A program made the position numbers and the translations under genes. From Chrysochromulina tobinii (taxonomy: Eukaryota), in assembly GCA_001275005.1 (NCBI GenBank), contig JWZX01003355.1:1-36509 (forward strand): a stretch of 36,509 nt of DNA, written 5' to 3'. Below, one piece after another: positions 6,001 through 34,500 of this stretch. Within the stretch, counting starts at the first letter, position 1, and the number at the start of each line of letters is the position of its first letter. A model generated the notes under the pieces. It saw nothing but the letters and a program-made list of their open reading frames with translations. It was not told the origin of the DNA and did no database searches.

Positions 6001-9000
6001 CGGCGCTTGTGGTGCACATGATCGGTCCAGCCTGCGGCGCGTACGCCGAGATGCGCGGCTCACGGTAGTACAAGAACGTCAGCCCCGTCGGTGCGAAGTC
6101 GATGCCGTTGAGCGACACGTACACCATCACGTCGCCCGCAAAGTTCAAGTCCATGGCGGCCGACGGGCACACGATGGTGTTGGACACGTTGTAGCCCAGC
6201 ACGCCCAGGACGGCGGCGCCGGAGAGCGCCAGCGTCGTGTGGGCATGGTCCTCACCCCATCGGCAATAGCGCTGCGCCGCCGCCGAGTCGTCGAATCCGG
6301 TGAGCGTCCCTCGCCAACTCTGAGCCTCCCTCATGACCCAACGTGTGCCGCCCGAGCTTGGGCCTCGCAGCCGCCCTTGGACCAGCACCATGCTGCCGGG
6401 CTGCTCGTAGTAGCGCAGCTCGAGCCTCACTTTGACGAATTGCTGCCCGTTGATGGCCACGCTCAGCTCGTCGATCGGGCTGCTGCCGCGCGGGGGCGTG
6501 CGGCACTCGAGCCGGTTGGCCGCCACCGTCAGGGCTGGGGTCTCTCTGTAGTTGGCGAGCACCTGTGGGGAAGAGGCGAGCTCGTCCCAAGCACCCCAAC
6601 GGCAGCGCGCCGCGCCAGCTGCGGGCGGCTTGTACGTGCCGAGTGCGTCGAGCCCGTTGGCGTAGACGGTGATTAGGGTGCCCCCGCTCGACGGCCCGCC
6701 CCTCGGTGAGAGGCTGAGGACATCGGCGAGCGTCGGGTTCCGGTAGTACGTGAAGTCCAATCCCGTGTCCTCGAAGGGCGCGATGCCGTTCAGGGAGAGG
6801 TACAGACGGACCACGCCCACGACGGTGCGTGGTGTGGTGGTGCACGTGATGCGGCTCGCGTTCAAAAAGGAGGGCGTGACCAGTCCGCTCTCTTCTTCGC
6901 CCCAGCGGCAGCGCACGAGCTCGGGCGTGTCCGAGTTGAACGCGTCGAGGGCCGCGCCCTCTAGGTGGACGACGGTGCCGCCCTGCAGTGGGCCGCCGCG
7001 CACGGAGAGGGAGTAAAAGATGGACGAGATGACGAAACCAATTCGACTCTGCGCGGCGACGGTGGCATCGATGAGGTGCGAGACGGAGCGGAGCGTCCGG
7101 TCGTACAGTGCCGACGAGGCCTCGCCCACCAGGTCAACGAGGGAGCGTGCGAGCAGAAAGGGTGTCGGCAGCCGTCCAGTGTTCACAGGGAGAATCTCCA
7201 CGACGACGCTGATCGCTGTGAAGGCCGTAGAGCTGAGCTGTGAACTGTGAACAGCCGTAGAGCTGAGCTGCCGGCCTCCGCTTTCGGAGGACTCGACGGC
7301 GGCGCTGCCACCACCAGCCCCAGCGAGCTGCAGCCGCCGGCCAGCGGAGCCGCCTCCAGCTGAGGACGACTCACTCACGATGCGCACGACCTGCAGGCGC
7401 GACGCCGTCACGTTGCGTCCGTTCGACTCGACGGCCATCAGCGAAGCGGCGAGGTCCTGCCGAAGCGCCGCCTCGAAGGCCACCCGTGCTTGCGAGCCGG
7501 CGGGCACCTGGTCGATCCCGAGGTTCACGCGGAAGGTGACTCGGCGTGAACGCTGCGGCTCCATCGAGTAGAAGCCAAACGAAAAGGGCGTGGGGTCAAA
7601 GTCGGCGCCATTGAGCGAGACGAGCACGTCGTGGACGGCCGTGTCGGGCTTGGACGGCGTCGCGCACCGAAGCTCGGAGCTGCTCAGGTAGAGAGCGATC
7701 GTATCATCCGTGTCAAGCCCGTCGGTGAAGCGGCAGCGCGCAAACTGCGGCGTGCGTCTGCCTTCGTACTCATGGAAACCCAAGCCGTGGAGCGTGATGA
7801 TCGTGCCGCCGAGCGTCGAGCCGCCGGTCACGGGCGCCATCGTCGTCAGGTTGTACGGCTGCGTGTAGTACGCAAACGGAACGGAGGTTCGAACAAAGTC
7901 GGCACCGTTGAGCGCGAGCACAAACTCGCGGTCCACGTCGGGAAAGTTTGCAAAGGCTCCGCGGTCGAAGGACTCGCAGATGACGGTCGTGTCGCTTAGG
8001 AAGAGGGGGGTGGTCATGTACCTGAGGAGTTGGCACTCATAGGTCATTGGTTGCCATCAAGGAGGCCATCAGGCAGGTCATCAGGGAGGTCATCCGGGAG
8101 GCAATCAGGGAAGCAATAAGAGGCCATCAGAGGCCAGCACAGGCAATCAGACGATGCGTACTGGCCAGAGTAGTCAGAGAGCGCCCTCGACGCTTGCAGC
8201 ACGTCGATGATGAAGACGGAGCCATCGTACCACTCGCCTGAGTAGTCGGGGCCGACGGTCGGCTTCATGAGGAAGAGCGAGTCGACAAAGTCGCGCCCGC
8301 CTGAGTGCGCGCCGCGGTTCGTCCGACCGTTGAACGTGACTGTGAGCGTGTCGCCCACGCCGTAGCTAAAGTCGCCGCCGTCGGGGTCGGACGCTCGGAA
8401 GCTCACGATGCGCGGTGGCTGGAGAGTACCAACGCCCGCGTTCCGAGTCTGCAGGACGGGAGAGGTGGCGGTGGCGGGCGCCGAGGTGCGCCCACGGTTG
8501 CGGATTGGCTGCCCGGCCGTTGGCGATGAGGCGATCGTGGGCGTCACGCGCACATTTTTGAGGGTGACGCCGTCGGTCGTGATGCCCTCGTTGCTCGCGT
8601 CCTGGATAGTGATGACGAAGCTCGAGGCATCCTGCCACTCGCCTGAGAACTGGGCGCCGAGCGGGTGCGTGAACGTGAAGAGCGCGTTCACAAAGGCCTC
8701 ATCGCCGCGCGTAGGGGCGTCGAGGCCGCCCCGATCTGTGAGCCGGTCAAAAGTAGATAAAGAGCGAGTCGCCCTCGCCGAAGACGGTGTCGGCATTGTC
8801 CACGTCCTCCAAGATGAACCCACCTACTGGGAGGATCTTGGGCGCCTCAAGGGAGCCAAACGAGCCCACGAGCAGCGCCTGGCCGGAGGCCGCCTCCGAG
8901 TTGCCCGCCGCGTTGACAATCAGCCCGCCGCGCACATCGCGGAGGGATGCGTGCGTCTGGCCCACGAGGGCGGTGCCGCCCGCCGCGCTCACGATCGTCA

Positions 9001-15000: not shown

Positions 15001-18000
15001 GGTTGGCGACGGTCACGCCGACCGTGGGCGTGAGCTCTGCGGAAGTATTGACGAATTGCTCGAGGATCGTCACCTCGAACACGGTCGAGTTCCGCCACTC
15101 CCCCCAATACGAGCCGCCCAGCTGCACGGAGAAGCCGAAGAGCTCATCGACCGACGCCTTCGCCGCCTCGCGGGTCCACTCGGCCGCCGTCGTGCCGTTG
15201 GCGCCGCAAAAGGAGCATGTGCGGTTCGTGGGTTCGTCAAAGTGGAGGGAGTAGTAGACGGGGCCGGGCACGGACCCAAAGTATTGGCGTGCGCGGCGCG
15301 AGACGAAACTTGAGAGCCGCGGCCGGCGCGCCCGCCCAAAATGGCCCTGCAACACAACGTTCGTCTGGTTGAGAGGCTCGGTCAGGTTCAGCCGCCCGCC
15401 GCCTGCGTCGTAGAAGGAGCGGATGGGCTTGAGCACCGTCACCACCGTCTGGTTGATCAACGGCAGCTCGTACCGCGTCTCCGTCACCGTGATCGTGAAG
15501 ACCGAGTCATCCATCCAGGCTCCCGAGTAGCCGACCCCGGGAGGGATGGAGAAGTCAAACAGCGCCTCGACGCGCTTTTGCTTCGCCTCGACCGCGCCCA
15601 GGTCGGTGGAGCGGTCGAAGGCGATCGTGATCTGGTCACCATCCGAGAAGACATAGTCGACGTCATTGCTGGTGGCCGCGCCGGGGTCGCGCACCTCGAA
15701 GCGCTCGAGCAGCGGTGCGCCCGAGTCGGAGATGCCGCCGAGGGCGGACGACGTGACGGCGACGGGCGAGGTGCCGCCACGGTTCCGCAGCGTGCCCACG
15801 AGGGTGACGTTCGAGCGCTGGCGTGGCTCGCAGCCCGCATGGTTGCAGATGCGCAGCTCGCCCCCGAGGGTGTCGAGAGCGCGCACGCGGAAGGTGCGCG
15901 CGTCGGCCCACTCGCCCGTGTAGTCGGCGCCAATCGGCGGATCAAAGCGGAAGAGCTGGTCGACGAAGGCCTTGCCTCCTTCATACGCGCCCAAATTCGT
16001 CCCATGGTTGAATCGCACCGTGATCAAGTCCCCCACGCCGTACACGGCATCGCCATTGTCATAGTCCTCGGCGGTGACGTTGACAATGTACGGCGTCGTG
16101 GACTCGAAGAGCGGGAAGCGCGATCGCAGCTTGAGCTCGTCGAGCGAGGCAGGCGCCATGCCGGCCGAGGCGCGCGAGCGCGAGGTGCGATCGCGGATCG
16201 CCGCGTGGAGTGCGAGCGTCACCTTCTCTGTTCTCGCCACCGTCGCTGTCATCGCTGAGGAGACAGAGATGGCCTCGATGACGAAGGTGGAGTCGTCCTT
16301 CCACTGGCCCTGGTAGTTCAGCCCCACGGGCATCGAGACGCTGAAGAGCGAGTCGACGTACGCCGAGTTGCCCGCGACGGCGCCGCGCCCTCGGTCGGTC
16401 GCCTGGTCGAAGACGATCGAGATTTGATCTCCGGCGCCAAAGGTGGAGTCGCCGTGGTCCGGATCGTCGACGGAGACGAGCACGATCGAGGGAGTCACTC
16501 CGAACTCGGCGCGGAAGGGCGCGAAGCGATCGTCCTCCGACGCGACGATCGGGCCGACGAACGAGTTCGCGCCGTTGCACTTGCGCGCCGTGCTGAGCCT
16601 GCACCCCTGGTTGCGGACCCGCCCCTGCGTCTTGACGAGAATGGCGCCGAGCTCACTGTTGAGCTGCGAGCCCGTGCCGTCGACGATGCTGATCACGAAG
16701 GTCGAATCGTCCGTCCACTCGCCTTCGTACGCGTCGCCGATCGCGACCGAGAAGTTGAACCAGGTGCTCACCACGGCGGCGGGCACCCGTTTCCCGATGT
16801 CGTATGGGCACACGCCCCAGGGCGCAGCGACGGCGGGCGGGGTGGCCGATTGGCAGCCGAGGTCCGTCGCCCGGTCAAATGTGAGGCGGATCACGTCGCC
16901 GAATGCGACCGTTGCGTCGCCAAAGTCGGGGTCCTCGCCCACGACCGAGACGAGCACCGGCGGCTCGTCGAGGCCGCAATCTCCCGTGAGCACGGCCGAG
17001 ATCTCATTGAGCGGCTCGGAGGTGCCCGCGAGATTTCGGATCACGAGCGCGTCTCGCGGGCGCACCTGATGAGGGAGGCAATCAGAGGTCATCAGAGGCA
17101 ATCAGAGCCCGTCCATCTGGAGCGTCTCGCGGGCGCACCGTGCACGTGTTATTCGGGTGCACGTGCCCGTCAGCCAAAAAGGGCGGGAGCGACCGGTAGG
17201 AGGGCTCGAGGATGGTGATCTGAAAGATGGAGTCGTCGAGCCACTCGCCACTGTACGACTGGCCGAGCTGTGCATTGAACGCGAAGAGCGAGTCGACGTA
17301 CTCGCGGTCGCCCGAGTACCTGCCGAGCATGGTGCTATTGGAGCGATCGGTCGCCATGTCGAACGTGATGCGCAGCTCGTCGCCGGCGCCGTAGGCGAGA
17401 TTGATGTCATTCGGGTCGCTCGCAGAGAACTCGATGATCGTCGGCGTGCCCACGGGGCCAACGCTGCCCGTGATGGGCCAGCGTCGGATGACGGGTGGCG
17501 TGGTCGCGTAGTTGTTGAAGAACGTGAGGTAGTCCTCGCACTGTCGCGTCGTGACGCGCGACCACGAGTGTGGGTAGCGCGGCCCGAGCATGCGGCCGTA
17601 ATTGTCGAGGCCGCTGTTGCCAAATTGGTCAGTGGTCCGCGGCACGCTTGGCGGCGAGGGCTCGCCGTAGGCGCACGCCGACACGGTGACGCCCCCGTAG
17701 CCACACACGAGCATCGGGGCCTGAGAGGCCGAGAAGGACGTGGTGACGAACCAGGAGCCCGAGCGGAAGTTGGGCGGCTCGGCGCGGCTACCGAGCAAGT
17801 TCGAGTCGCACAGCCAGGGCATGGGGAGCGTCGCATTGAGGATCGTGATGACGAGCGTCTGGGGATCCTCCCAGGTGCCGCTGTACTCGGCGCCCAGGCC
17901 ATTGTACTCGGCGTCGATCGGGACCCCGTCGCGCACGCGAGCGCGCTCGCACCCCGGATTGCACGGCGTACAGAATGTGAGGTACTTATCAATGTCCCAT

Positions 18001-21000: not shown

Positions 21001-24000
21001 GTCCATCAGGTTGGAGCATGTCTTGGCCGTGTAGTTGAGATTGGTGATGCCGCCGGAGGGGCGCGCCGTCACATTGAGCTCGCCAACGCGCGGTGGGAAG
21101 ATCTGCGACCCTTCCGCGTCGACGATGGTGACCACGAACGTCGAATCGTCCTTCCATTCGCCCGTGTAGTCGGCACCGAGCGGGTGCGAGAACTCGAACA
21201 GAGCGTCGACGAGCGCCTTGCCGCTCAGCGAGCTGCTGCCCAGCGGGTAGGGGACCACCTCGGGCGGGCCGCCCTTGACACCCGCGCCGTTGGCCGGATA
21301 CACGAGCGTCGACGGCTGCTGGTAGTTGCTGTGCGTCACGCCCCGGTTCGTCTGCTGGTCGAAGACGATGGTGAGCACGTCGCCGGACGAGAAGACGGCG
21401 TCTCCATTATTCGGATCGTCGGCGACGAAGCGGATGATCCGCGGCCCGTCGCCCGCCCTTCCAAAGTCGCCTTCCAAACGAGGCAAGCTTGCGAGCGCCG
21501 GCGTGCCATCAGTGAGCATCGTGCTCGCGTCCAGCCGCGCTGCGGAGCCGCTGAGGGTGGGCGCGAGGCAGTAGGGGGTGCCTCGGAACTCTGCCGGGCA
21601 CGAGAGAGACTGCACGCGCACATCGCGACGGAGTGCGACGCGCGTGCCAGAGTCCGCAAAGGCGGTGCCGTAAGGCCTGTAGCTGGGGGCGAGGATCCCT
21701 GGCTGCGGCGCGGCCGAGCCGTTGATGACCGTGACGAGGAAGGTGGAGTCATCGAGCCAGCCGGTCGAGTACTCGTGGAAGAGAGGCTGCACGATGCGAC
21801 TGCCCGACGCGTCGAAAAAGTCGAAGAGACGCGCGAGCTGGGTGTTGAAGAAGCCGTTGCCCGAGCACTGCGACGAGAAGTCACAGTTGAGGACTCCCGA
21901 GTACTCCGCGAAGGCGTTGGCGGCGCGGTCGGTGGGCACATCGAAGCGAAGCGCGATCGTGTCCCCTGCTCCGGGGATGAGGTCGCGGTTGACGAAATCG
22001 GACGCGATCACCTCCACGAGCCGTGGCGGTGTGGGAAAGGTCTCGACGCGCTCGGCGACACCGAGGAGCGCCGCCTCCATGACGAGCAGCGGCGCCGTCT
22101 GCGCCAGGTTCGTCATGTTCGCCTCACGCGCAATCCGTAGCATCGTGTCATACGGCCGCGGCGCGTACTCCGGATCGGGATACGGCTCCGTCACGGTCAC
22201 CACGAACGTCGAGCCGTCGGACCAAGCGCCGCTGTACTGGGCGCCCAGCGGGGCCGAGACGCTGATGAGCGAGTCAACATACTCCTTGCCGCCCGATCCG
22301 CGCTGTGCACAGAAGGGCAGGTTGTTCACAGAGAGGGCCTGCTGCAGGCATCGGCCAGGGAGCACCGCGCGGTCGAATTGCAGCACGAGCTCATCGAAGG
22401 CATCGTAGCTCGCGTTCGCGTTGTCGCGGTCATGTATGAAGAAGCGTAGCAGGGAGGGCGCCGTCTCGTTCGCGCCAAAATCGCCCACGCTCAGCCGGTA
22501 CGATGCACTCGAGAACTCGGACGTGCGCGGCGCGTTCTGCAGCCGGCCGGCGACGGTGACGAGGGCGCCCGAGGAGCCACCCACGCGTGGACCAGTGCCT
22601 GCACCGGTAGGATCGAGGATGGTGACGACAAAGGTGGAAGTGTCGAGCCACGCGCCGCTGTAGTCGGCTCCGAGTGGCTCGGAGAAGGCGAGCGTCGTGT
22701 CCACGAACGCCCTGCCGCCCTCGCGCCTGCCCAAGTCTGTGGGGAGGTCGAACTGGATGGCGAGCGTGTCGTTGCGCGACCACAACGGGTCCTTGAGGTC
22801 CCACGTCTGCGAGTCGTACCGGATGATCGAGGGGGGGGTCATCGTGCCGGGATTGCCCGTCAGCGCCGAAGTGGCGCGGCACCAGCGCGAGCGCTCGTTC
22901 GCGGTCTTGATGTCGCCGGCGACCGAGACTGTGACGGCGCCCAAGACGGCGCCCGGGCTGGACGGCATCGTGTGGCCACTCACGTCGACCATGGTGATGA
23001 GGAAGGTGAGCGGGTCGAGCCAGCGACCGTTATAGCGCGCACCGAGCGACTCGCTGAAGCGGAAGAGCCGATCGACCAGATCGCGATCTCCCGCCTCGGT
23101 TGCGAGCTCGTCGTACCTGATGAGGGAGGCACTCAGAGGTCATTCGAGGCACCCAGAGGTCATTCGAGGCACTCAGAGGCAGTCACGCCAGCTTCTTGTC
23201 GTCGTACCCCTCGACCCTCGAGATAGCGCGATTCGTTTCCGAGTCGAACGTGATCGTGAGTGTGTCGCCGTCCGAGAAGACGACGTCGCGATTGTCAGGG
23301 TCCGCGAGTACCGCAGACAAGATCTTAGGCGCGACCACCCCGGCCTCACCCGTCATCGAGAGGAAGCCCGCGGAGATGGGCGAGGTGCGCGGCGTGTTGC
23401 GAAGGTCTCCTGCAATAGTGAGGGTGGAAGTGAAGCCGCCGCCCCACAAGCAGCGTGCGACCTGCGGCATCGAGGGGAGCTCGGTCAATCCAGATCCCAT
23501 CCAGATCAATCCAGATCCCATCAAGATCAAGGGCAAATCGAGGATAGTCAAGGTCAATCAAAGGGACTCACCTGCGTCATCTCCTGTTGAGAGAGGGGCT
23601 GCGACTCCGACACAAACGCAGCCAAGCCCCTGCCCGTGAGCGTGACACGTGTCCCCCCGCGCTTGGGCCCCGCCTCGGGCGTGATGCCGGAGAAGACGGT
23701 CGGCTGCACGTAGTACGTGTAATCGAGGCCGGTGTCGATGTACACGGCGTCGTCGCTCGAGAGCAGCAGATGCACGTCGCCACTCTGACCGACGGGCGGC
23801 GTGGCGCAGAGGAGCCGCTCCCTGCTCACCTGTGGGGATATGGCGATGGCGCCGTGGTGAGCACTTGCATGCAGGCGTGGCGCAGAGGAGCCGCTCCCTG
23901 CTCACCTGCAGCACCGGCATCACCACCTCGCGCGAGCTGCCGAAGCGGCAGAAGGCGATAGGGCCCGCATCGAAACCAAAGCCGCGGAAGGTGACGAGGG

Positions 24001-27000
24001 TTCCTCCGGTGGTCACACCCCCGGGCGGCCCGCCGTTCACAGTCACCTGGTCGATTCGCAGGCCGTAGTAGCGGAATCGGTACGTCGTGTCCACGTACTG
24101 CTGGGCGTTGAGCGTCACGAGCACGAACGCGGCCTCGGCCTCAGCGATCGCCGTCTGATCATTGCCATATTTGGGTATGGTTGCCATATTTGGGCGAGCG
24201 GCACACGTTCAGTGAGGATCAGAGGCACTCAGGGGCCATCAGAGGGCATCGGAGGCACTCAGAGGGCATATGAGGCCATCAGAGGGCATCGGAGGCCATC
24301 AGAGGGCATCAGAGGGCATCAGAGGGCATCAGAGGGCATCAGAGGGCATCGGAGGGCATCGGAGGGCAGCACGCACCTGATTGGGCGAGCGGCACGTCCA
24401 CCGCTCAGGTAGCAGCTCGATCGGCGGTGTGTCGGCGATGTTATTCGACGTGACGAAGCGGCAGCTCGCAAACTCGGTGTTGCCCCCGAGCCCGTGGAAG
24501 CCCTGCCCAAAGATGCTCATGATGTAATCAGAGGTAATCAGAGAGGTAATCAGAGGTAATCAGAGGACTCACCTGACCAAAGATGGTCATGATGTAATCA
24601 GAGGTAATCAGAGGTAATCAGAGGTAATCAGAGGACTCACCTGCCCAAAGATGGTCATGATGTAATCAGAGGTAATCAGAGAGGTAATCAGAGGTAATCA
24701 GAGGACTCACCTGCCCAAAGATGGTCACCACCGTGCCGCCCGAGAAGACGCCTGCCTGCGGCAGCACCGACTGCACCGAAGGCGGGTTGTAGTACGTGTA
24801 GTTCTGACCCGTCCAGCGCGGATCGCGCCCCGACTCGAGGGCGAAGCCGTTGAGGGCGAGCCAGAGCTGACGCGTATCGGTCAACTTCGTGGGTGGGCTC
24901 TCGCACACGGCGGCATGCCCGCCGCCGAGCGCCGTGGCGCGCGTGATCGTGTAGCGAGGGTTGTACGCGGCGTTCGTCGGCTCGCCGTACTGGCACGAGA
25001 GGTACGCGCCGCGATCGAGCGCGTCGAATCCAGTGCCGACGAGGGTGACGAGGGTACCGCCTGTCCGATGACCGCCCGAAGGGATGATGCGCGCTACGTA
25101 CGGGTTGTCATAGTATTGGAAGTTGAGGCCCGTCGCACCAAAGTCGATGGCGTTGAGCGAGAGGGTGAGGTTGACCGTCTCGGCAGCCCCGATGCGTGCT
25201 GGCGGCGCGAGGCACACGATGCGCCGATTCGAAAGCTCGAGGGGCTGCGACTCAGGCGGCGGCAGGCTGAGGGTCTGTGCCAGGCTCGCGGCCAGCATGT
25301 CCACGATCGGGGCCTGCCAACGGCAGCGCACGAGGCTCGACGAGAATGCAAGGAAGCCCGAGCCCACGATCGTGACTGCCGTGCCCCCTCCCTTGGGACC
25401 ACCCACGGGGGACAGCCGGACGAAATCCTCGTTGGATGAAACCCCGGCGCCACTCCCCTTGGGGCGGGGCTGCTGATAGTACTCGAACGTGAAGCCGGCG
25501 ATCGGCTCGAAGTCGGTCTGCGCGCCATTGAAGGAGAGGGCGATGCTCACGACGGCGGGCTGTGCCGCCGGCGGCGTCGTGCACACGATCATATGGCGCT
25601 CGAGGACCTCGGCTGCCACGAAGTTGACGAGCCCAAACCGACACAACGCGTTCCGCGGGTCGGTCGAGAAGACGTCAAACGGACCTCCTAGGATGGTGAC
25701 CGAGGTGCCTCCGCGCGTCGGACCGCCTGTCGGCTCGCTTGCCGTGTAGTTCGTCGGCTGCTCATAGTACAAGAAGGAGACGTTGAGCGCGTACAAGTCG
25801 ATCGCGTTGAGTGCGAGCGACATGTTGCGCCGAGCCGTCGTCGACTGGGGGAACGAGGCGACGACGATGCGATTGGGCGTGAGCACGCTCGGTGTCGTCA
25901 GGTTCGTCAATGACGTGTCGCCCCACCCGACGCGCACGTCACTCACGTTGATGGAGGCGTACGCTTTGAAGCCACTCCCGCCCAGAGTAACGACGGTGCC
26001 GCCGTCGACCCGCCCGCCCGTTGGGTGGATGGACGTCACCGTGAACGGCTGCACGAAGTACGTGAAGTTCAGCGCCGTGTCGGGCGTCACGGCCACATAG
26101 TCGCGGTCGTTGAGCGCGATCTCAAGGCCCACGACGGTGGCTTGCGTGAACGGCTGAGCGGCTGTCCTGCACCAGAGCTGCGTGTCGTCCAGGTACTGCG
26201 GGATGGTCACCTCCGTCCCATCCCATCGGCATCGCGCGTTCCCCGCCTGCGCGCCCCCCAGTCAACGGCCGCATGCAATTAGAGTGATCATCAGCGGTCA
26301 TCAGTGGTCATCAGTGGCCATCAGCGGCCATCCGAGCTCATCCGCGCTCATCAGCGCCACTCACCTGCGCGCCCCACCGGGCGAATGCCGCGAGGCCCTC
26401 GCCATGGATCGTGATCACCGAGCCGCCGAGGGTGGGGCCCGCCGTCACGGGGGTCAGATGCGTGAGGCGCGTCGGCTGCACGAAGTAGGCATACTCGAGG
26501 CCGTTGGTGTGGTAGTCTTGGCCGTTGAGGGCGATCTCCATGTCGGTCACCACCGGCGACGAACGCACCGGCGAGCGGCACACGACGCGCATGGGCGTGA
26601 GCACCGTCGGTGTCTGGAAGCTCACCAGAGGCGTCACGGCGTCCTCCGCCTCGGTCACATTGGTAGACAGGCAGGGGCGCAGCTCGACATTCGAAGTGCT
26701 CAGAGGCGCCGAGCCGTCGAGGTAGGGAGGTGCACTGCCCAGCCGACGCAGGCGCGTCTGCCCCGGACGGATGGAGATGCGCAGCCCCGAGCCTGATGAC
26801 GGGAGCCATCAGATAGGATCAGAGGCCATCAGAGGCCCTCCGAGGCCCTCCGAGGCCATCAGAGGCCATCAGAGGCCATCAGAGGCACTCAGAGGCCATC
26901 AGAGGCCATCAGAGGCCATCAGAGGCACTCGGAGGCACTCGGAGGCCATCAGAGGCCATCAGAGGCACTCGGAGGCACTCAGAGGTGACGAACCGCCTTG

Positions 27001-28495
27001 GAGTAGATTGGTAGGCGCGGCCTGCGAGTCGCCGCCCGACACGGCGCCTGGCGTGACGCGTGCGTTGATGGCCTTGAGGGTGAGGCGACGCGTGTCGAGC
27101 CACTCGCCCGTGTACGTATCAGCCAAGCGCACAGGCCCGCCTTGCCCCCTGCTCGAGAAGACGAAGAGTTCGTCCACCTGGCGCGAGAGCCGCAGGCGAG
27201 GGTATGAGGGCGATCGTGTGTGAATGAGGGCGATCGTGTGTGAATGAGGGCGATCGTGTGTGAATGAGGGCGATCGTGTGTGAATGAGGGCGATCGTGTG
27301 TGAATGAGGGCGATCGTGTGTGAATGAGGGCGATCGTGTGTGAATGAGGGCGATCGTGTGTGAATGAGGGCGATCGTGTGTGAATGAGGCCCATGCAGCT
27401 TCGATCCAAGGTCATTCGCGCCCCGCCCAGGCATGACTCCGAGCCACGCCTCGGAGCCATGTAACGTACCTGTGGGGAGTGAGGGCGTCGTGATGAGCAC
27501 TTGCATGCCGAGCCACGCCTCGGAGCCGTGTAACGTACCTGTGGGGAGTGAGGGCGTCGTGATGAGCACTTGCATGCCGAGCCACGCCTCGGAGCCGTGT
27601 AACGTACCTGTTCACCGGTGAGTTGGCGCGAGAAGCCGTTGAAGGCGGTGGCCGCGAGTTGGATGCCGTTCGTTGGTATATCGAAGATGACCGAGAGAGG
27701 CACCGCGCCTGTGAGTGCATCGGCTTCGCACCCGTCCGGCTGCGAGCCCACGCGGAACGCTACGATCGAAGGCTTGTCGGTGAACCGGCACCGGATCAGT
27801 GTGTCCGCGAGGTCGATGTGGGACTCGTTCAGGTAGCCTCCCGTGAAGCCGATGCCCTCGATCACGACCTCGGTACCGCCGGTGACGGGCCCGCCCGTGA
27901 TGGCGGCGTTGGTGAAGTTTGCGGGTGCCGGGTAGTAAATGTACGTGAACCCCGTGTCCATCAGGTTCGGCTCAATGAACGTCGTCCCTACTGTCGTCCC
28001 AGCGAGCGTTATGTAGCGCAGCGAAAACCACAGGCTGACTAGGCCCGACACGCGCGGGTACGACGGGCACTTGAGCATATCGACGCGGCTGATGCTGGCC
28101 GGGACGTCAAAGGTGGCGCGCAGCTCGGGCGTCACGGTCACCTCGGTAAGCAGCTGGGTCGCCTCCGTAAAGTATTCGGGCGGCACCTCGGGCAACGACG
28201 CCTCATCGTCGCTCCAGCCCGACCGGTCGGCCTGCTGTCGCGCAAGGATGGCCTGCTCCCAGTCCTGCGGATTGCCCCAGTGGCATTTCACGCGGTTGAG
28301 CACGCCGGTGCTGATCCGGCTGAACTCGCGGCCGACGATCGTCACGGTCGTGCCGCCCTGCACCGGCCCGCCGGTCGGGTGGGCCGAGTAGACGGGTGGC
28401 GCTTTCTCGTTATGGCTCGTGCTCCGGCTCCCAGGAGGGAGTATGAGCAGCAGCGGCAGCAGCAGCAGCGCTGTGGGAGCACGCCTGCGCGCCAT
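1..28495 (-). CDS. Giant secreted/cell-surface repeat protein with IPT/TIG domains and ~44 copies of an uncharacterised acidic ~130-150-aa module; 3'-partial (>8,800 aa)
   Basis: ATG at 28495 in CCACCATGG context, followed by signal-peptide-like MARRRAPTALLLLPLLLILPPGSRS. Inferred exons: 28495-27608, 27177-26994, 26792-26365, 26246-24711, 24502-24377, 24154-23906, 23829-23572, 23461-23208, 23116-19046, 18890-18200, 18113-17139, 17065-8162 (one extra base at 8749-8752), 8021-3522, 3352-<1. All joins are GT-AG and phase-consistent, and they stitch the long minus-strand ORFs (481, 514, 1320, 2784, 1523 aa and others) together. IPT signature P..GP..GGT.VT..G.GF...CR[FW]...C..P...LNG..F. Confidence 0.85.
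3353..3521 (-). other. Intron 13 of giant gene (5' exon copy plus type A acceptor cassette)
   Basis: Starts GTTCGTCGCGCCC; next exon starts GTTCGTCACGCCC; ends TTGCCTCCCTCATCAG; contains 10-bp and 24-bp tandem repeats. Confidence 0.8.
8022..8161 (-). other. Intron 12 of giant gene
   Basis: GTACGC...CTCCTCAG, phase 2, filled with degenerate CTGAT repeats; joins SGQ-YMTTP. Confidence 0.7.
17066..17138 (-). other. Intron 11 of giant gene (17-bp 5' exon copy plus type A cassette)
   Basis: GTGCGCCCGCGAGACGC occurs at the intron start and at the next exon start; ends TGATTGCCTCCCTCATCAG. Confidence 0.85.
18114..18199 (-). other. Intron 10 of giant gene (27-bp 5' exon copy, 3 mismatches)
   Basis: GTGCGCTCCGCGTCCGTTGGCGACCCA versus exon GTGCGCTCTGCGTCCATTCGCGACCCA; ends TGATTGCCTCCATCATCAG. 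Confidence 0.85.
18891..19045 (-). other. Intron 9 of giant gene (CTGAT minisatellite)
   Basis: GTACCTGATT...GATGACAG, phase 2, joins RNR-WDLL. Confidence 0.75.
23117..23207 (-). other. Intron 8 of giant gene (9-bp 5' exon copy plus type A cassette)
   Basis: GTACGACGA at both the intron start and the exon start; ends GAGTGCCTCCCTCATCAG. Confidence 0.8.
23462..23571 (-). other. Intron 7 of giant gene (3' end resembles upstream exon end)
   Basis: GTGAGT donor; ends GATGCCGCAG versus exon end GATGACGCAG. Confidence 0.8.
23830..23905 (-). mobile_element. Intron 6 of giant gene: introner-like unit (32-bp exon duplication plus type B cassette)
   Basis: GTGAGCAGGGAGCGGCTCCTCTGCGCCACGCC is identical to the next exon start, followed by TGCATGCAAGTGCTCACCACGGCGCCATCGCCATATCCCCACAG. 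Confidence 0.7.
24155..24376 (-). other. Intron 5 of giant gene
   Basis: GTGCGT...GATCAG; 10-bp CTCTGATGCC array; internal copy TGCCGCTCGCCCAA of the upstream exon end. Confidence 0.75.
24503..24710 (-). repeat. Intron 4 of giant gene: three tandem intron units (70/68/70 bp)
   Basis: Each unit is GTGAGTCC-(TCTGATTACC)n-...CATCTTTGG[G/T]CAG, ending in a copy of the upstream exon end; internal AG|GT at 24641/24640 and 24573/24572. Confidence 0.85.
26247..26364 (-). other. Intron 3 of giant gene (11-bp 3' exon copy)
   Basis: GTGAGT donor; ends GGGGCGCGCAG, the same as the upstream exon end. Confidence 0.8.
26793..26993 (-). other. Intron 2 of giant gene (10-bp minisatellite)
   Basis: GT donor at 26993 (an in-phase GC donor at 26996 is also possible); CTCTGATGGC array; ends CCCGTCATCAG. 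Confidence 0.7.
27178..27607 (-). other. Intron 1 of giant gene, containing two 69-bp type B units and a 20-bp minisatellite
   Basis: Splicing GEQ|VDELFVFS restores the repeat-module consensus; units at 27607-27539 and 27538-27470. Confidence 0.75.
27204..27389. repeat. 20-bp minisatellite (TGAATGAGGGCGATCGTGTG), about 9 copies
   Basis: Near-perfect tandem array with no spacers, inside intron 1. Confidence 0.95.
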
Positions 28496-28832
28496 GGTGG
28501 GGCCTCGGTGAGCGCTCCGCTTTGCTTGGAAAAGGCACAAATAAGCGTTGAAGTGGGCGGTCAAAGTTTGCAGAGTGCGGGGTGCTTTGGTAGCATGTGG
28601 TAGCCGGCGGCCCGGTGACTCGTACTGAATTCTTTGACACTACTGTACGATTTCCCTGAAGAAAGTAAGAGCCGAGCCGTGTGGAACAATTGAAATGTCC
28701 ACGTACTCGTGTACTGTTGTACATTGTGTCTTGGAACTTACCCCGGAATTTGCCGGTTGCAACACGGACACAGTTTCGTCAGAAGCGCCGCGTCAAGCAC
28801 ATCGAGGTCCTGTGCGACCTCCGAGAAAGCTC
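28496..28832. promoter_or_regulatory. Short head-to-head intergenic region, probable bidirectional promoter
   Basis: 337 bp, visibly more AT-rich than the flanking coding DNA, between two divergent ATGs (28495 minus, 28833 plus). No specific element identified. Confidence 0.45.
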
Positions 28833-31085
<2,253 letters not shown>

Positions 31086-31530
31086 GCACGCGTTGGAGCA
31101 CGAGGAGAGCGAGAGAGATTTGTAACCGACCAAGCTACCCTACCAATTGGCGGGACAGCCATACTCTCACGAGGAGAGCGAGCGCTCTACCGCTCCTTGA
31201 TTGCTTACCGCTGAAGACAACGACCTATCTAACGCCATCGCCGCAGCGTTCCAGAAAGAAGAAACAGCCGTGCGTGTATCTATAGATAACGAGTGGAGGT
31301 GCCGGGGCGCAGGGGGCGAGCGTTCTCATGCGATGCAGATAGAGTTGCAGATTCCGCTTGCCGATGCGTCGCGTGTTGGACGGGAAGTTCGATGCTACTG
31401 TATACAACAAAGCGTCACTTAATCTAAGACACACCCGGGTCCGGGGGCCGCGGCCGGGCCGGCCACGACGGTTGTCAGGCGCGGGGCGTCTCGAGACCGG
31501 GTTGCACTAGAGTGCTAGAGTGCTGACACG

Positions 31531-34500
31531 TCACCGAAAGCCTAACCCCAACCGCGTGCCTGGCAGCTGCGGGGACTCGTTCCTGGGCGGCGGCGAGTTC
31601 CGAGCGTTCTGCTGGTTGAGCTGGTCCCACGCGTTGACCGGGATCTCCTTGGCCGTGGCATAGCGAATGTGCATTGTGGTGGCGCCGAGCCCGACGGCGC
31701 GCGCCGCGCGCATCTCGACTGTCTGGACTTCGTGCCAGTTCGCCTTCCGCGCGGACGGGTGATGGACCTCCGGCTGCACGCGAGCGCTGTACTGACCGGG
31801 CCCCTTGACAGGGGTCCCATTGGGTAGGATGTAATGCGGCTCCGAGCGCGCGCTACTCGAGGGCGGCGGGTGCGGCGCCGCGTCTCGCAGCCCTACCGGT
31901 AGGCTCGACGCGAAGGCGCCGTCGCGAGCGCTCGCGCTGCCGCCGCCTTTGGCTGTACGCCGGTGACGCGGCGAGCTGCCCCCGAGGATGGCGGCCGCCG
32001 CGGCGCCATCGGAGGGCGCGTGGGGGGGCATGCCCGCAATCTCCGCCTCGGGAGATCCGCGTCCGGAGTGGCGGCTCGACGGGAGCGGCGGGAGCGCTGC
32101 ATCGGGCGCGCCGTGCGCCGCATAGGCTGCCGAGGGCGGATGGGCCGTCGCCGCCGGCGCCTGCTGCCGCTGCTGGTGCTGCTGGTGCTGCTGGTGCTGC
32201 TGGTGCTGCTGGTGCTGGTACTGGTGCTTCTGCCCGGGTGGCGAGGCCGATCGAGGGCGCACTAAGGCTGCCTTATATAGGAGGCCAGCGAGGGTGCCCT
32301 CGCGCTTCCCCTCGAGCTTCGCGGCCGCGTCAGAGCGCACCCCGGCCTGCGCTGCCAGGTGCACCCGCAGCAGGTGGAGCGAAGCGAGGGCGGACTGCAC
32401 CAAATGAGAGCGCTCAGCGGCGGCCGCCACTTGCGTGCCCTCGAGCTTCTCCGTCACGTGCTGTAAGTTCAGCTCGATGCGCTGAAAGTCCGCTTTGCGC
32501 GCCTTGAGCTCCTTGAGCATGTCTTGCCGTCGAGCCTCGAGGCGTGCCTCGTTCGCCCTCGCGCTCTTAAGAGAGTTCTCGGATTCCTGTGCCTTGCCGT
32601 GCGCCGAGCGCACCTCCGCCACCGAGGCCGCCACGACTGCCTTGTAACGGTCGAGGAGGATGCGTAACCGATCGGCGACGGGCGCATTCGGCGGCTCGAG
32701 CAGCGTATGGATGCTCATCAGCCAATCGGGCAGCGGCTCGCCGGAGCGGCCCGTGTAGTACCTGATGAGGGAGGCAATCAGAGGTCATCAGAGGTCATCA
32801 GCCAATCGGGCAGCGGCTCGCCGGAGCGGCCCGTGTAGTACCAGCTATCCGAATGAGGCACGATCGCGGCGCCTTTGCTCGCCGTCTCGCCGGCGCGTTG
32901 GCGCAGCTCGAGCAGCTCCTCAATCGCCTCGCGCACGACGCCGTGGACGTCGTCGAGGTGCTGTGTGGAGCGCACCGCCTTCGAAACGGCCTCACCGAGC
33001 TGCGCCCCGAGGCGCTCGGCAGCCGCGACCGCCTGCGCCGCCCTCTCTCGATACCGCCGCTCCTCCTTGAGCTCATCGTCGGCGTCGTCGAGCGTGTGGC
33101 ACAGCGCAATCTGCGCCACCTGACGTGCGGCGAGGTAGCCCTTGAGCTTGGCGACCTCGCTCGCATGCACCTCCTTGAGCATCGCGAGATCGGCGAGATG
33201 GCGCTGGCTCGAGCGCCGCCATCCGCCGCCGCATGCGCGTCCTCGATCGTGCGAAGGGTCGCGCGCGTCGCCTCGTGCGCCGCCGCCTCCTGTGCCGTCG
33301 CCGCTGCCGCCGCCGCCGCCGCCGCGTGAGCAGCCTCGAGCTCGAGCTGGAGCGTCGCGACCTGCGCCCCGTGCGCGCTGATCTGCGCGCTGACCTGCGC
33401 ATGTAGCGCTTCCAGCTCGGCCGTGTGGTCCACCGGTGGCGGCTTGGCGCGCTCCGCCTCGAGCTCGTCGCTCACCTGATGAGGGAGGCACTCGATCTAA
33501 TTAGGGATGCAATCAAAGGCAAACAAAGGCCATCAAATGGCCTCGAGCTCGTCGCTCACCTGGCGCAATCTCGCCTCGAGCTCCGAGATATGGAGCTCAA
33601 GCGCACGCTGGCCCGCCGCGCCCTGCTCGAGCGCTGTGCGCTGCTCCTCCACGAGCGCCTCGAGCTCGCGCAGCCGCGCCGCCGCCGCCTCGCGCCTCGC
33701 CACCTCTTCCGGATCCTCCTCCCGCACCTGTGGGGAGGAGAGGGCGCCGTGGTGAGTACATGCATGCTGGGAGAGGGAGACACGGATCCTCCTCCCGCAC
33801 CGTTTCCACAACGAGCGGCGCGTCGAGCGAGGGGTCCTCGGGCGGCTCGGGTGGTTCGACGACGCCCTCGAGCTCCTGTGAGCCGCGCAGCCGGCGCGCG
33901 AGCCGGCGCAACTCCCACCGCAGCTCCTTGGCCACCCGTTGCGTCGCCGCGTCCACGTCCGCGATCACCTGTGGGGAAGGGTGAGGCGCCATGGTGAGCA
34001 CTTGCATGGCACCAGCCGCAGTAGGGATCGTCCACGATCACCTCGGAGCGAAGAATCAAGTGCACTCAAGTGCAATCAAGTGCAATCAAGTGCAATCAAG
34101 TGCAATCAAGTGCAATCACCTCGGAGCGGAGCTGTCGCGTCGCCTCCTCCGCGGCGGCCGAACGCTCAGCGAGTGCGATCGCCTCGGCCTCCTTGGTGCC
34201 CAAGCGCGCGAGCGCCTCGTCGAGCTGGGCGCGCACCTGTGGGGAAGGCGAGGCGCCGTGGTGAGCACATGCATGCTGGCCGAGGCGCCGCGCGTCGAGC
34301 TGGGCGCGCACGGCGTCGGTCTCGGCACGCAGATTCGCGGCCGTCGCCATCGCCTCGAGCGCCTCGATCTCGTGCTGCGCCGCCAGCGCGGCAGACGCCT
34401 TCTCCGCCGCCGCCGCCGCGGACGCTGCCTTGGCGAGCTCGTCCTTGAGGACTTTCTCGCGCTGCTCGGCCTTGACGGCGCGCTCCTTCTGCAGCTCGAA

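Follow-up and report, generated by a model that had tools for sequence, protein, structure and literature searches.

We find that a short acceptor-bearing module dispersed among introns of the haptophyte Chrysochromulina tobinii is introner-like: a non-autonomous "3′ half-intron" that was apparently copied from donor introns nearby and inserted at G|GT sites. This cassette is about 40 nt long and makes up the 3′ part of an intron, comprising a branch-point-like CTCAY, a C/T tract and a terminal TCCCCACAG. The splice sites of the resulting introns are divided in origin, with the AG coming from the cassette and the GT from a duplicated stretch of the target. We infer the insertion as such only from its footprint in the sequence, and the route proposed for it below is our reconstruction.

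The window analysed here is the 36,509-nt contig JWZX01003355.1 (GenBank assembly GCA_001275005.1). Allowing up to three mismatches, the 25-nt core of the cassette, GCATGCAAGTGCTCACCACGGCGCC, matches it seven times, starting at 23848, 27484, 27553, 33743, 33985 and 34252 on the minus strand and at 30297 on the plus strand; no match is expected by chance, and 100 dinucleotide shuffles of the window gave none. The seven copies lie in three genes (a giant IPT/TIG gene, a class II aminoacyl-tRNA synthetase gene and a coiled-coil gene), and in all three the cassette runs in the sense orientation, as judged by GT..AG joints in RNA contigs. Six copies share one layout: 13-32 nt that begin with GT and duplicate what lies downstream, a filler of 0-19 nt, the core with a C/T linker and CCCCACAG, and then the duplicated sequence again. 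The exception, at 30297, has no CCCCACAG tail and sits within an intron. The similarity exceeds a generic acceptor consensus: other introns of the window finish in a different module, ...TGCCTCCCTCATCAG, and a degenerate form of the core has no match in 185,579 prokaryote genomes. The preliminary description, which had reported a roughly 40-bp acceptor module with seven sense-oriented copies in three genes, containing a branch-point-like CTCAC/CTCAT, a pyrimidine tract and an AG, thus holds on these points. Elsewhere in the window, the TCCCCACAG tail also closes a core-less intron-like stretch near position 6570 (minus strand), and a mirror-image class with long duplications occurs at 29697-29817 and 24502-24727.

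RNA contigs reveal how these copies are spliced. Copy 1 forms a 76-nt intron (23830..23905, minus strand; duplication family D19), composed of a 32-nt upstream duplicate that starts with GTGAGC (23874-23905), a single T as filler (23873) and the cassette, core plus ATCGCCATATCCCCACAG (23830-23872), followed by the exonic downstream duplicate (23798-23829). Its joint, 23797>23874, was seen in all three RNA runs and in no contig of the DNA run, and splicing leaves a stop-free ORF of 2042 aa. Copy 5 lies in a 73-nt intron (33728..33800, minus strand) with its cassette at 33728-33767, a 15-nt filler, and the duplicate GTGCGGGAGGAGGATCCG at 33783-33800 (intronic) and 33710-33727 (exonic); the joint 33709>33783 appears in two of four RNA runs, and the ORF is open once the intron is removed. 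Likewise, copy 7 forms a 75-nt intron (34237..34311, minus strand) with a cassette at 34237-34276, a 16-nt filler and the duplicate GTGCGCGCCCAGCTCGACG at 34293-34311 and 34218-34236 (joint 34217>34293, one of four RNA runs).

The remaining copies sit in more complex introns. Copies 2 and 3 (cassettes at 27539-27577 and 27470-27508) lie at the 5′ end of a 430-nt intron (27178..27607, minus strand; duplication family D9), separated and flanked by three copies of a 30-nt duplicate, GTACGTTACAYGGCTCCGAGGCGTGGCTCG (27578-27607, 27509-27538 and 27440-27469), the first of which starts exactly at the intron's donor. RNA contigs stop at 27606, the loose end of X16 matches 27152-27175, and the reading frame is open across this joint. 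In one RNA contig (one of four runs) a single 69-nt unit is missing (27459>27529), a pattern that collapse of the repeat during assembly would equally produce. Copy 6 is part of a 151-nt composite intron (33969..34119, minus strand). Its own unit (33969-34041) holds the 13-nt duplicate GTGATCGYGGACG, a 19-nt filler and a cassette at 33969-34009, and adjoins a second unit (34042-34119) of 78 nt, which is built of 10-nt repeats and bears a 14-nt duplicate of its own. The duplications of both units overlap one GT, and both leave as one intron (joint 33963>34115, cut +5; one of four RNA runs). Internal AG|GT junctions resembling those of recursive splicing occur at 27539/27538, 27470/27469 and 34042/34041. 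Finally, copy 4 lies in an 86-nt intron of the aminoacyl-tRNA synthetase gene (30252..30337, plus strand; Pfam domains tRNA-synt_2b and HGTP_anticodon), with the core at 30297-30321 and ATCTCT directly after it. On either side stands TCCCACCCAGGTC, a 13-nt sequence duplicated from the acceptor of the host intron (30274-30286 and 30328-30340); the intron begins 22 nt upstream of the first duplicate, and its joint, 30248>30335 (GT..AG with cut +3), is found in all four RNA runs.

Together, GT..AG joints in RNA contigs define spliced introns of 76, 86, 73, 151 and 75 nt for copies 1, 4, 5, 6 and 7, and the ORFs remain open after removal, as expected of introners. Some copies need qualification. 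All seven cassette intervals do end in an AG, but that of copy 4 belongs to the duplicated host acceptor. The AGs of copies 2 and 3 are not used as the final acceptor in the RNA contigs seen, and the unit of copy 6 is removed only jointly with its neighbour.

The cassette is not confined to this window. A scan of public metagenomes for the core found at least 137 loci, giving 160 instances in 152 distinct contexts; the 146 contexts with sufficient flank reduce to at least 130 non-redundant loci. Because the core has no chance matches, is absent from the prokaryote genomes and recurs at at least 130 loci, it cannot have arisen by convergence. Together with the seven copies in three genes, these loci show the hallmark of introners, near-identical introns at non-homologous positions. 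Among the matches listed, 104 of the 130 carry a flanking duplicate (score at least 12, unit at most 140), which is locus-specific, as in other introners, and variable in length rather than fixed for the family. In 68 of these 104 listed loci an AG|GY lies no more than 5 nt from where the duplicate starts (64 GT, 4 GC); these 68 are independent of one another by their flanks, with duplications of 9-44 nt (median 26) and units of 57-132 nt (median 77). Each position of the final 9 nt, TCCCCACAG, is conserved in 59-68 of the 68 listed copies, and this 3′ tail has no poly-A or simple repeat. Terminal inverted repeats are absent from the same 68, where the longest terminal inverted match is 3 nt. 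Sorting the listed matches by eye, we also found about 16 tail-less copies that end within the linker and stand at non-GT sites.

In an indirect test on the listed metagenome loci, the frame is continuous after unit removal in 35 of 68 (22.7 expected, p = 0.003), and in 10 of the 12 listed loci with a clear GC3 signal. That only 35 are frame-continuous is probably due to other introns within the 120-nt flanks. Duplications are perfect in 26 of the 68 listed loci, which may hint, though no more than that, at the youth of the copies. Tandem arrays of unit plus host sequence occur in the window (27440-27607) and at four metagenome loci (L047, L048, L094 and L100). A longer master element or small-RNA locus containing the cassette, as envisaged in the preliminary description, was sought and not found: no long extension that could represent a partner or master element is common to the copies among the at least 130 loci. 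In the window, Pfam searches of the 11 largest of 97 ORFs of at least 150 aa revealed no reverse transcriptase or transposase gene.

Units are more uniform in length than their parts. The six tail-bearing copies of the window have units of 76, 69, 69, 73, 73 and 75 nt, with duplications of 32, 30, 30, 18, 13 and 19 nt and fillers of 1, 0, 0, 15, 19 and 16 nt, respectively. Across the listed metagenome loci, duplication and filler lengths are inversely correlated (Spearman rho -0.62), and the standard deviation of unit length is 7.4, compared to 12.1 in shuffles, none of 5000 of which was as low. The proposed compensation of 13-32-bp duplications by filler, giving units of 69-76 bp, is therefore real. 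Its suggested cause, a limit near the minimal spliceable size, fares less well: unit lengths are bounded on both sides (64-94 nt, plus one of 57 and one of 132), and a lower bound on its own would discard just ~6% of shuffled units. Spliced introns of 121-462 nt occur in the same genes.

The fillers point to local copying. Fillers of at least 8 nt (36 in total) are only 24% identical to the exon continuation and are thus not decayed duplicate; they instead match parts of the upstream flanks of other copies. Anchored on the core, 37 pairs of loci among the matches listed share filler at a score of at least 8, compared to 5 in the control, and 17 compared to 4 at a score of at least 10. For example, a 25-nt filler at L056 is identical to host sequence beside the L055 copy, and both loci contain a two-core composite. 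Such filler-sharing is concentrated within contigs, being found in 6 of 41 same-contig pairs and 11 of 8344 others among the matches listed (odds ratio 130, p = 1e-10). Single contigs also bear donor-like together with copy-like loci. With locus-specific duplications and fillers traced to the flanks of other copies across at least 130 loci, the earlier suggestion of a mobile or templated half-intron gains support.

How might such a cassette be moved? We tentatively favour, at a little short of even confidence, template-switching DNA synthesis during repair or replication, with a nearby intron as donor. A nascent strand copying the target would overrun the G|GT site by 9-44 nt, switch to a neighbouring intron at or upstream of the core, copy core and tail, and then go back to the G|GT site, so that the target stretch is written twice. 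Selection would keep just those sense products whose duplicated GT can serve as donor and whose length suits splicing. The tail-less copies at non-GT sites would represent returns at other short matches, and the tandem arrays later slippage between duplicates. Such switching would explain why the target duplication is long and variable and why filler is present. The insertions are exact at one junction, where the donor AG meets the target GT, and sloppy at the other, which filler occupies; a tract copied from nearby sequence accompanies a duplication at the site, as in templated insertions. Insertions recur at one identical GT both at the donor of the pre-existing 430-nt intron and in the composite intron of copy 6.

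Several observations count against template switching. The predicted matches between donor exon start and new target show no excess: the base preceding the donor is G in 58 of the 68 listed copies, overlapping the final G of the cassette, and junction microhomology of 4-5 nt exists in single cases (L094/L095), but there is no excess beyond the splice consensus, and the shared run beyond GT averages 0.5 nt in same-contig pairs (n = 8) compared to 0.9 nt in other pairs. Pairs with similar tails share slightly more (3.08 vs 2.79 of 7 positions, permutation p = 0.035). Nor does the model explain the two-sided length compensation, and the exact AG end, sense orientation and preference for functional donors are also predicted by an RNA intermediate. 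Intron gain in Daphnia reportedly occurs by double-strand-break repair with short flanking direct repeats, and introns are also said to arise by tandem duplication of an AGGT-containing exon segment. As in these cases, the new intron is flanked by a host direct repeat and duplicated exon gives a splice site. However, there each gain has its own insert, or the insert consists entirely of duplicated exon, whereas here a shared cassette from other introns gives the acceptor half.

An RNA-mediated route, which we consider possible though on balance unlikely, would start with reverse transcription of either an unspliced transcript or an excised donor intron, which ends 3′ at the AG. Entry could be target-primed at a staggered break, or follow attack of the intron 3′-OH on a donor-like G|GU of the same transcript (partial reverse splicing), with the far end of the cDNA then joined sloppily 9-44 nt downstream to create the duplication. 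Target-primed reverse transcription typically gives variable-length duplications. It fits this account that the copied part stops exactly at the donor AG in at least 68 of the 104 loci with a duplicate, while its 5′ extent ranges between just the core and an entire two-core intron, resembling 5′ truncation with a fixed 3′ end. The sense orientation wherever RNA contigs reveal it, the repeat insertions exactly at functional donors, and the presence of donor and copy on the same contig, possibly in one transcript, are also in keeping with it. By contrast, the ORFs searched in the window include no reverse transcriptase, the 3′ tail is neither poly-A nor simple repeat, the tail-less copies would need internal priming, and plain reverse splicing yields no duplication. 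A weak further objection is that the first-copy filler at L056 shares 3 nt with its probable source beyond the latter's presumed donor splice site. The variable duplications, fixed 3′ end and variable 5′ truncation are SINE-like, but SINE-like dispersal is unlinked to its source, whereas donor-flank sharing is here strongly concentrated within contigs.

We regard it as highly improbable that the cassette is a conventional introner, that is, a miniature DNA transposon that is non-autonomous and is mobilized by a transposase, as in Micromonas, Aureococcus and dinoflagellates. The functional layout does match introner-like classes 4 and 5 of Symbiodinium and Polarella glacialis (bioRxiv 10.1101/2020.10.14.339549): the element end is the 3′ splice site, a single orientation makes introns, and many unrelated gene positions are occupied. 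Inverted repeats and a duplication fixed at 4 nt (or 8 nt) characterize those classes; here, in contrast, the duplication varies from 9 to 44 nt, the payload is ~40 nt without inverted termini, and the 5′ end is fuzzy and bears donor-flank pieces as filler. Published introners have duplications whose length is fixed at 3-9 bp per family (PMC9860276), a range that the cassette's duplications far exceed. The 68 listed copies, with neither inverted termini nor a fixed-length duplication, are unlike miniature inverted-repeat transposons, and no transposase was found among the 11 ORFs of the window searched with Pfam.

The functional layout also matches the "co-opt 5′ carry 3′" families of a 2025 survey. 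Among these, fam24 and fam11 of Emiliania huxleyi CCMP1516 are ~70-nt introns that carry the acceptor and co-opt the donor, with "10bp terminal direct repeats" and a mechanism given as "Unknown"; only 5 copies are listed, with an automated duplication call of 2 nt (Gozashti et al. 2025, PMC12130899). E. huxleyi donors are mostly GC (PMC4028052), whereas 64 of the 68 cassette copies use GT. Introner family 5 of Chrysochromulina sp. (TARA MAG) is also ~70 nt and without inverted repeats but has a 4-bp duplication, and is the mirror image of the cassette, carrying the 5′ site and co-opting the 3′ site (PMC9860276). The Chlamydomonas element Replitron-1 resembles the cassette in orientation specificity, in having one exact end and one "fuzzy" end with variable parental flank, and in variable duplications; its elements of 3.6 kb and 910 bp, however, are characterized by TAAAGG terminal direct repeats as well as a Rep HUH gene and make no introns, and the cassette has no Rep gene and no such termini (PMC10288648).

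Scarcely credible is an origin without mobility between loci, through a convergent lineage-specific acceptor consensus, local tandem duplication and gene conversion between neighbouring introns: the core-less stretch near 6570, the tandem arrays and the local clustering of copies speak for it, but a 24-25-nt core is common to at least 130 non-redundant loci, 68 of them independent by flanks, other introns carry a different acceptor module, and the simple arrangement of duplicate, cassette and duplicate holds one cassette and is therefore not a tandem duplication of a pre-existing unit.

If the cassette is copied by template-switching repair, introns would be created without a classical transposon in a GC-rich alga. 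A broader reading, which we offer as doubtful, is a self-propagating, transposase-free form of intron gain in which an acceptor half is copied in cis onto donor-like G|GT sites, duplicated exon serves as the new donor, and other modules behave likewise, accounting for a large share of short introns. The source of the cis copy would then be a spliced-out intron or its gene, with targets in the same or neighbouring genes, and the other modules would be the 10-nt-repeat cassettes and the mirror-image, donor-carrying modules. Short introns of this alga would have a "birth length" of ~75 nt, fixed by some form of molecular ruler.

Seven matches to the 25-nt core of the acceptor cassette (GCATGCAAGTGCTCACCACGGCGCC) were found in the window at ≤3 mismatches, recovering every copy that the preliminary description had placed there, and no match occurred in 100 dinucleotide-preserving shuffles of this sequence (G+C ~65%). 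In six copies, all on the minus strand, the sense order is a GT-starting duplicate of the downstream sequence, filler (extra nucleotides between that duplicate and the core), the core with a C/T-rich linker and CCCCACAG, and then the duplicate again. Duplicate, filler and unit (duplicate plus filler plus cassette) measure 32, 1 and 76 nt in copy 1 (core start 23848); 30, 0 and 69 nt in both copy 2 (27484) and copy 3 (27553); 18, 15 and 73 nt in copy 5 (33743); 13, 19 and 73 nt in copy 6 (33985); and 19, 16 and 75 nt in copy 7 (34252). The "duplicated part" of 13-32 bp in the earlier account corresponds to this GT-starting duplicate. Unlike the other six, copy 4 (30297, plus strand) has only ATCTCT after the core and a 13-nt flanking duplicate, TCCCACCCAGGTC. 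The suggestion of a small-RNA locus holding the cassette found no backing, as no known RNA families were detected in the window at gathering thresholds. Near 6570 on the minus strand, an intron-like stretch ends in CTCGCCTCTTCCCCACAG, identical to a common cassette tail, with neither a core upstream nor a clear duplicate; it is either a 5′-truncated copy or a sign that the tail is common to other intron families.

Splicing was assessed on contigs placed along the window in two rounds, each drawing on 4 of the 21 public runs listed (three RNA runs and one DNA run, then four RNA runs). As assembled contigs rather than raw reads, these show that spliced forms exist, not how efficiently they are spliced; gaps in RNA-contig coverage (e.g. 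28555-28789) were given zero weight, and DNA-run depth at cassette positions, which sums all contigs placed there, was not taken as copy number. The 76-nt unit of copy 1 was skipped in three of three RNA runs and by none of the DNA-run contigs, and the RNA-supported pieces around it join into a stop-free frame of 2042 residues. Skipping was also seen for the 73-nt unit of copy 5 (two of four RNA runs) and the 75-nt unit of copy 7 (one of four), while the copy 6 unit and an adjoining 78-nt unit of 10-nt repeats were removed as a single 151-nt intron (one of four). Copy 4 lies inside an 86-nt intron that was skipped in all four RNA runs. A 430-nt intron holds copies 2 and 3 at its 5′ end. The RNA contigs break off at 27606, and one of them has a loose end matching 27152-27175, so the first 30-nt duplicate begins exactly at the donor of this intron. 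Precisely one 69-nt unit is missing from a single RNA contig (27459>27529), although a collapsed tandem repeat would look identical. Reading frames remain open across all RNA joints of cassette-bearing introns. Together with the GT..AG form of these joints and the identity of the hosts (a giant IPT/TIG-domain gene, a class II aminoacyl-tRNA synthetase and a coiled-coil gene), this bears out the claim that the cassette occupies three genes, always in sense orientation.

Several other features of these genes were apparent. A very large minus-strand gene apparently spans most of the window (1-28513), with a signal-peptide-like start near 28513, IPT/TIG domains, many ~130-residue motif repeats without a Pfam match, and stop-free frames of 2784, 1526 and 1369 residues. 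Also within the 430-nt intron, a 20-nt sequence (ATGAGGGCGATCGTGTGTGA on the plus strand) is repeated in tandem about ten times (27204-27400), perfectly over ~186 nt (27204-27389). Intron-internal CAG-GT junctions are present on the minus strand at 27470/27469, 27539/27538 and 34042/34041; judged by sequence, a first round of splicing would leave a new donor at each of them, which would make them recursive splice sites with zero-length exons.

The cassette recurs outside the window: a scan of public metagenome contigs with a degenerate 24-nt core found at least 137 loci, and the same core had no match in 185,579 prokaryote genomes. Among the matches listed, 160 instances reduced to 152 distinct contexts, of which 146 were kept for having flanks of at least 100 nt upstream and 80 nt downstream (6 dropped); merging near-identical flanks left at least 130 non-redundant loci. 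A flanking direct duplicate (score ≥12, unit ≤140 nt) is present in 104 of 130 loci among the matches listed and absent in 26. In 68 of these 104, termed strict loci and independent by their flanks, AG is followed by GT (64) or GC (4) within 5 nt of the duplicate start. The other 36, sorted by eye among the same matches, comprise ~9 with the same architecture and an indel or a duplicate extending a few bases further upstream, ~8 tandem arrays in which the "duplicate" is the whole preceding unit, ~16 copies without a tail, in which the duplicate adjoins the core or a few bases of the linker (with a GT start in only one), and three that fit none of these classes clearly.

Across the 68 strict loci among the matches listed, duplications are 9-44 nt long (median 26) and 96% identical on average (perfect in 26), and units span 57-132 nt (median 77), with 66 of 68 at 64-94 nt. 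Each position of the final nine bases, TCCCCACAG, is conserved in 59-68 of these 68 copies, the linker differs among them in both length and sequence, and the adenine of CTCAY, the predicted branch point, lies 22-34 nt from the acceptor (median 27). When the unit is taken out, the frame deduced from third-position G+C runs on without a break in 35 of these 68 listed loci, against an expectation of 22.7 (p = 0.003), and does so in 10 of the 12 with a clear third-position G+C signal on both sides. A longer master element, envisaged earlier, did not emerge: sequence shared upstream of the core extends at most 27 nt among the matches listed (130 loci), and the 250-nt flanks contain no long common element.

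Some metagenome loci showed further rearrangement. At L047, L048, L094, L100 and L037, 24-61 nt of host sequence plus core is arrayed two to four times, and minisatellites seem to grow from the cassette together with its duplication. Locus L056 carries an 18-nt tandem array at 870-1000 in cassette sense (GACGCTCACCACGGCGCK, ~7 copies) that has 14 nt in common with the 3′ half of the core and would translate as an Ala-Asp-Ala-His-His-Gly repeat; the array may represent a source or an exonised core, or the likeness may be coincidental. The single match in the viral collection, L138, places a full cassette within the last 360 nt of a virus-labelled contig, followed by GTGAGT at the contig end and preceded by a 10-nt-repeat unit with a ~30-nt flanking duplicate (two mismatches). 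We did not accept this as viral carriage, since the contig is not long enough for a verdict and could be nuclear DNA of an alga, which it resembles.

Sequence just upstream of the core is common to unrelated loci, with 37 pairs at score ≥8 compared with 5 in the control, 17 compared with 4 at ≥10, and 8 compared with 3 at ≥12 (among the matches listed). In the clearest case, a 25-nt filler at L056 is identical to host sequence flanking a copy at L055 on the same contig, and a whole two-core composite is found at both loci. The copied tract thus begins at a variable point of the donor intron (the intron whose 3′ part was copied), and tail-bearing copies end at the donor's AG. Copying is mostly local: flanks are shared by 6 of 41 same-contig pairs and 11 of 8344 other pairs among the matches listed (odds ratio 130, p = 1e-10).

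Filler and duplicate compensate for each other in length. Their lengths are inversely correlated in the 68 strict loci among the matches listed (Spearman rho -0.62, p = 2e-8), as well as in the 25 of the listed loci with perfect duplicates (rho -0.60). In the same matches, the SD of unit length, with one 132-nt outlier dropped, is 7.4 nt, compared with 12.1 nt upon shuffling insert and duplicate lengths (0 of 5000 shuffles as low). Because fillers match the exon continuation at only 24%, which is chance level, this compensation is not a boundary artefact, and we rejected the reading of filler as decayed duplicate. Among shuffled units, ~8% exceed 95 nt and only ~6% fall below 60 nt, so few that a lower bound alone cannot explain the compensation. 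The proposal that unit length is constrained near the minimal spliceable size therefore holds in part: unit length is constrained, but on both sides, and minimal spliceable size is a candidate cause. Spliced introns of 121-462 nt occur in the same genes, and the tandem repeats or nested units within them may be later growth.

A second cassette type in the window has the same architecture, built of 10-nt repeats (CCTCTGATKR-like, with CTGAT in each) and ending in TGCCTCCCTCATCAG. It occurs on the minus strand at 17066-17138 (GT-starting duplicate 17 nt, unit 73 nt, insert 56 nt), 32762-32841 (48, 80 and 32 nt) and 33476-33559 (20, 84 and 64 nt); given these inserts, only the case with the 48-nt duplicate clearly fits length compensation. 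There are also mirror-image units, whose duplicate repeats the end of the upstream exon, finishes in CAG and gives the acceptor, the insert giving the donor and 10-nt repeats. One, at 29697-29817 (plus strand), is 121 nt long with a 28-nt duplicate and was skipped in four of four RNA runs; three more lie in tandem at 24502-24727 (minus strand) with a 68-70-nt period.

The spliced units, the at least 130 non-redundant loci, and the filler from other copies' flanks support the earlier reading of the cassette as a mobile or templated half-intron. The insertions show an exact junction on one side, where the imported AG meets the target GT, and on the other a sloppy one that carries filler from the donor; a minority of copies, which lack the tail, lie at other sites. 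Selection alone is unlikely to lie behind the GT-starting duplications: a single GT was hit repeatedly, as at the donor of the pre-existing 430-nt intron, exactly where the insertion of copies 2 and 3 starts, and in the copy 6 composite the duplications of two insertions overlap one GT. We tentatively favor template switching of a DNA strand, which during repair or replication would move to a new template and thereby copy the cassette into a new site, because this one scheme covers duplication and filler as well as the nearness of donors, the copies without a tail and the tandem arrays. It also predicts extended microhomology passed from donor to copy, for which our tests, negative or marginal on small samples, gave no support. 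A route through RNA, in which a spliced-out intron or pre-mRNA would be reverse-transcribed at a staggered break or after partial reverse-splicing, is a strong competitor, if somewhat less likely; with no appeal to selection, it would explain why copies end exactly at AG, lie in sense and prefer genuine donor sites. Cassette copies have no inverted termini, and a transposase-driven element is highly improbable.

The origin of new spliceosomal introns is a long-standing question with two answers: specialised transposons called introners, whose target duplications are short and of fixed length, or one-off repair events, which leave short direct repeats. A repair model of intron gain has reportedly been put forward for Daphnia. 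The present family lies between both answers, having a shared heritable cassette like an introner and a footprint resembling repair or template switching, since duplications are long and variable, one junction is exact and the other sloppy, filler comes from a nearby donor, and spread is local. We rate these cassettes as introners that spread locally and leave an unusual, repair-like footprint. According to the accessible part of PMC9860276, published introners have short duplications of 3-9 bp, often with inverted repeats, compared with 9-44 nt here. Dinoflagellate classes 4 and 5, as presented in the accessible part of bioRxiv 10.1101/2020.10.14.339549, have the same layout, the element bringing the 3′ site and the duplication the 5′ site. 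A 2025 survey (PMC12130899), in its accessible part, describes small E. huxleyi families of ~70 nt with mechanism unknown, one of them noted with 10-bp terminal direct repeats, and lists no introner families for Chrysochromulina tobinii. Replitron-1, in the accessible part of PMC10288648, combines an exact end, a fuzzy end with parental flank, and variable duplications, but it encodes Rep, unlike the cassette. Neither full-text literature searches nor the accessible parts of these papers yielded an account of an intron-making cassette that combines long duplications of variable length with filler from donor flanks.

Genes of this kind will be mis-annotated by gene finders unprepared for donors derived from exons and for AG-GT junctions within introns. 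Should the mechanism be confirmed, no dedicated transposase would be needed for intron families to spread, and this might be why some lineages gain many short introns of uniform size. The family would then also offer a tractable system for distinguishing RNA from DNA intermediates, with many young copies (perfect duplications in 26 of 68 strict loci among the matches listed).
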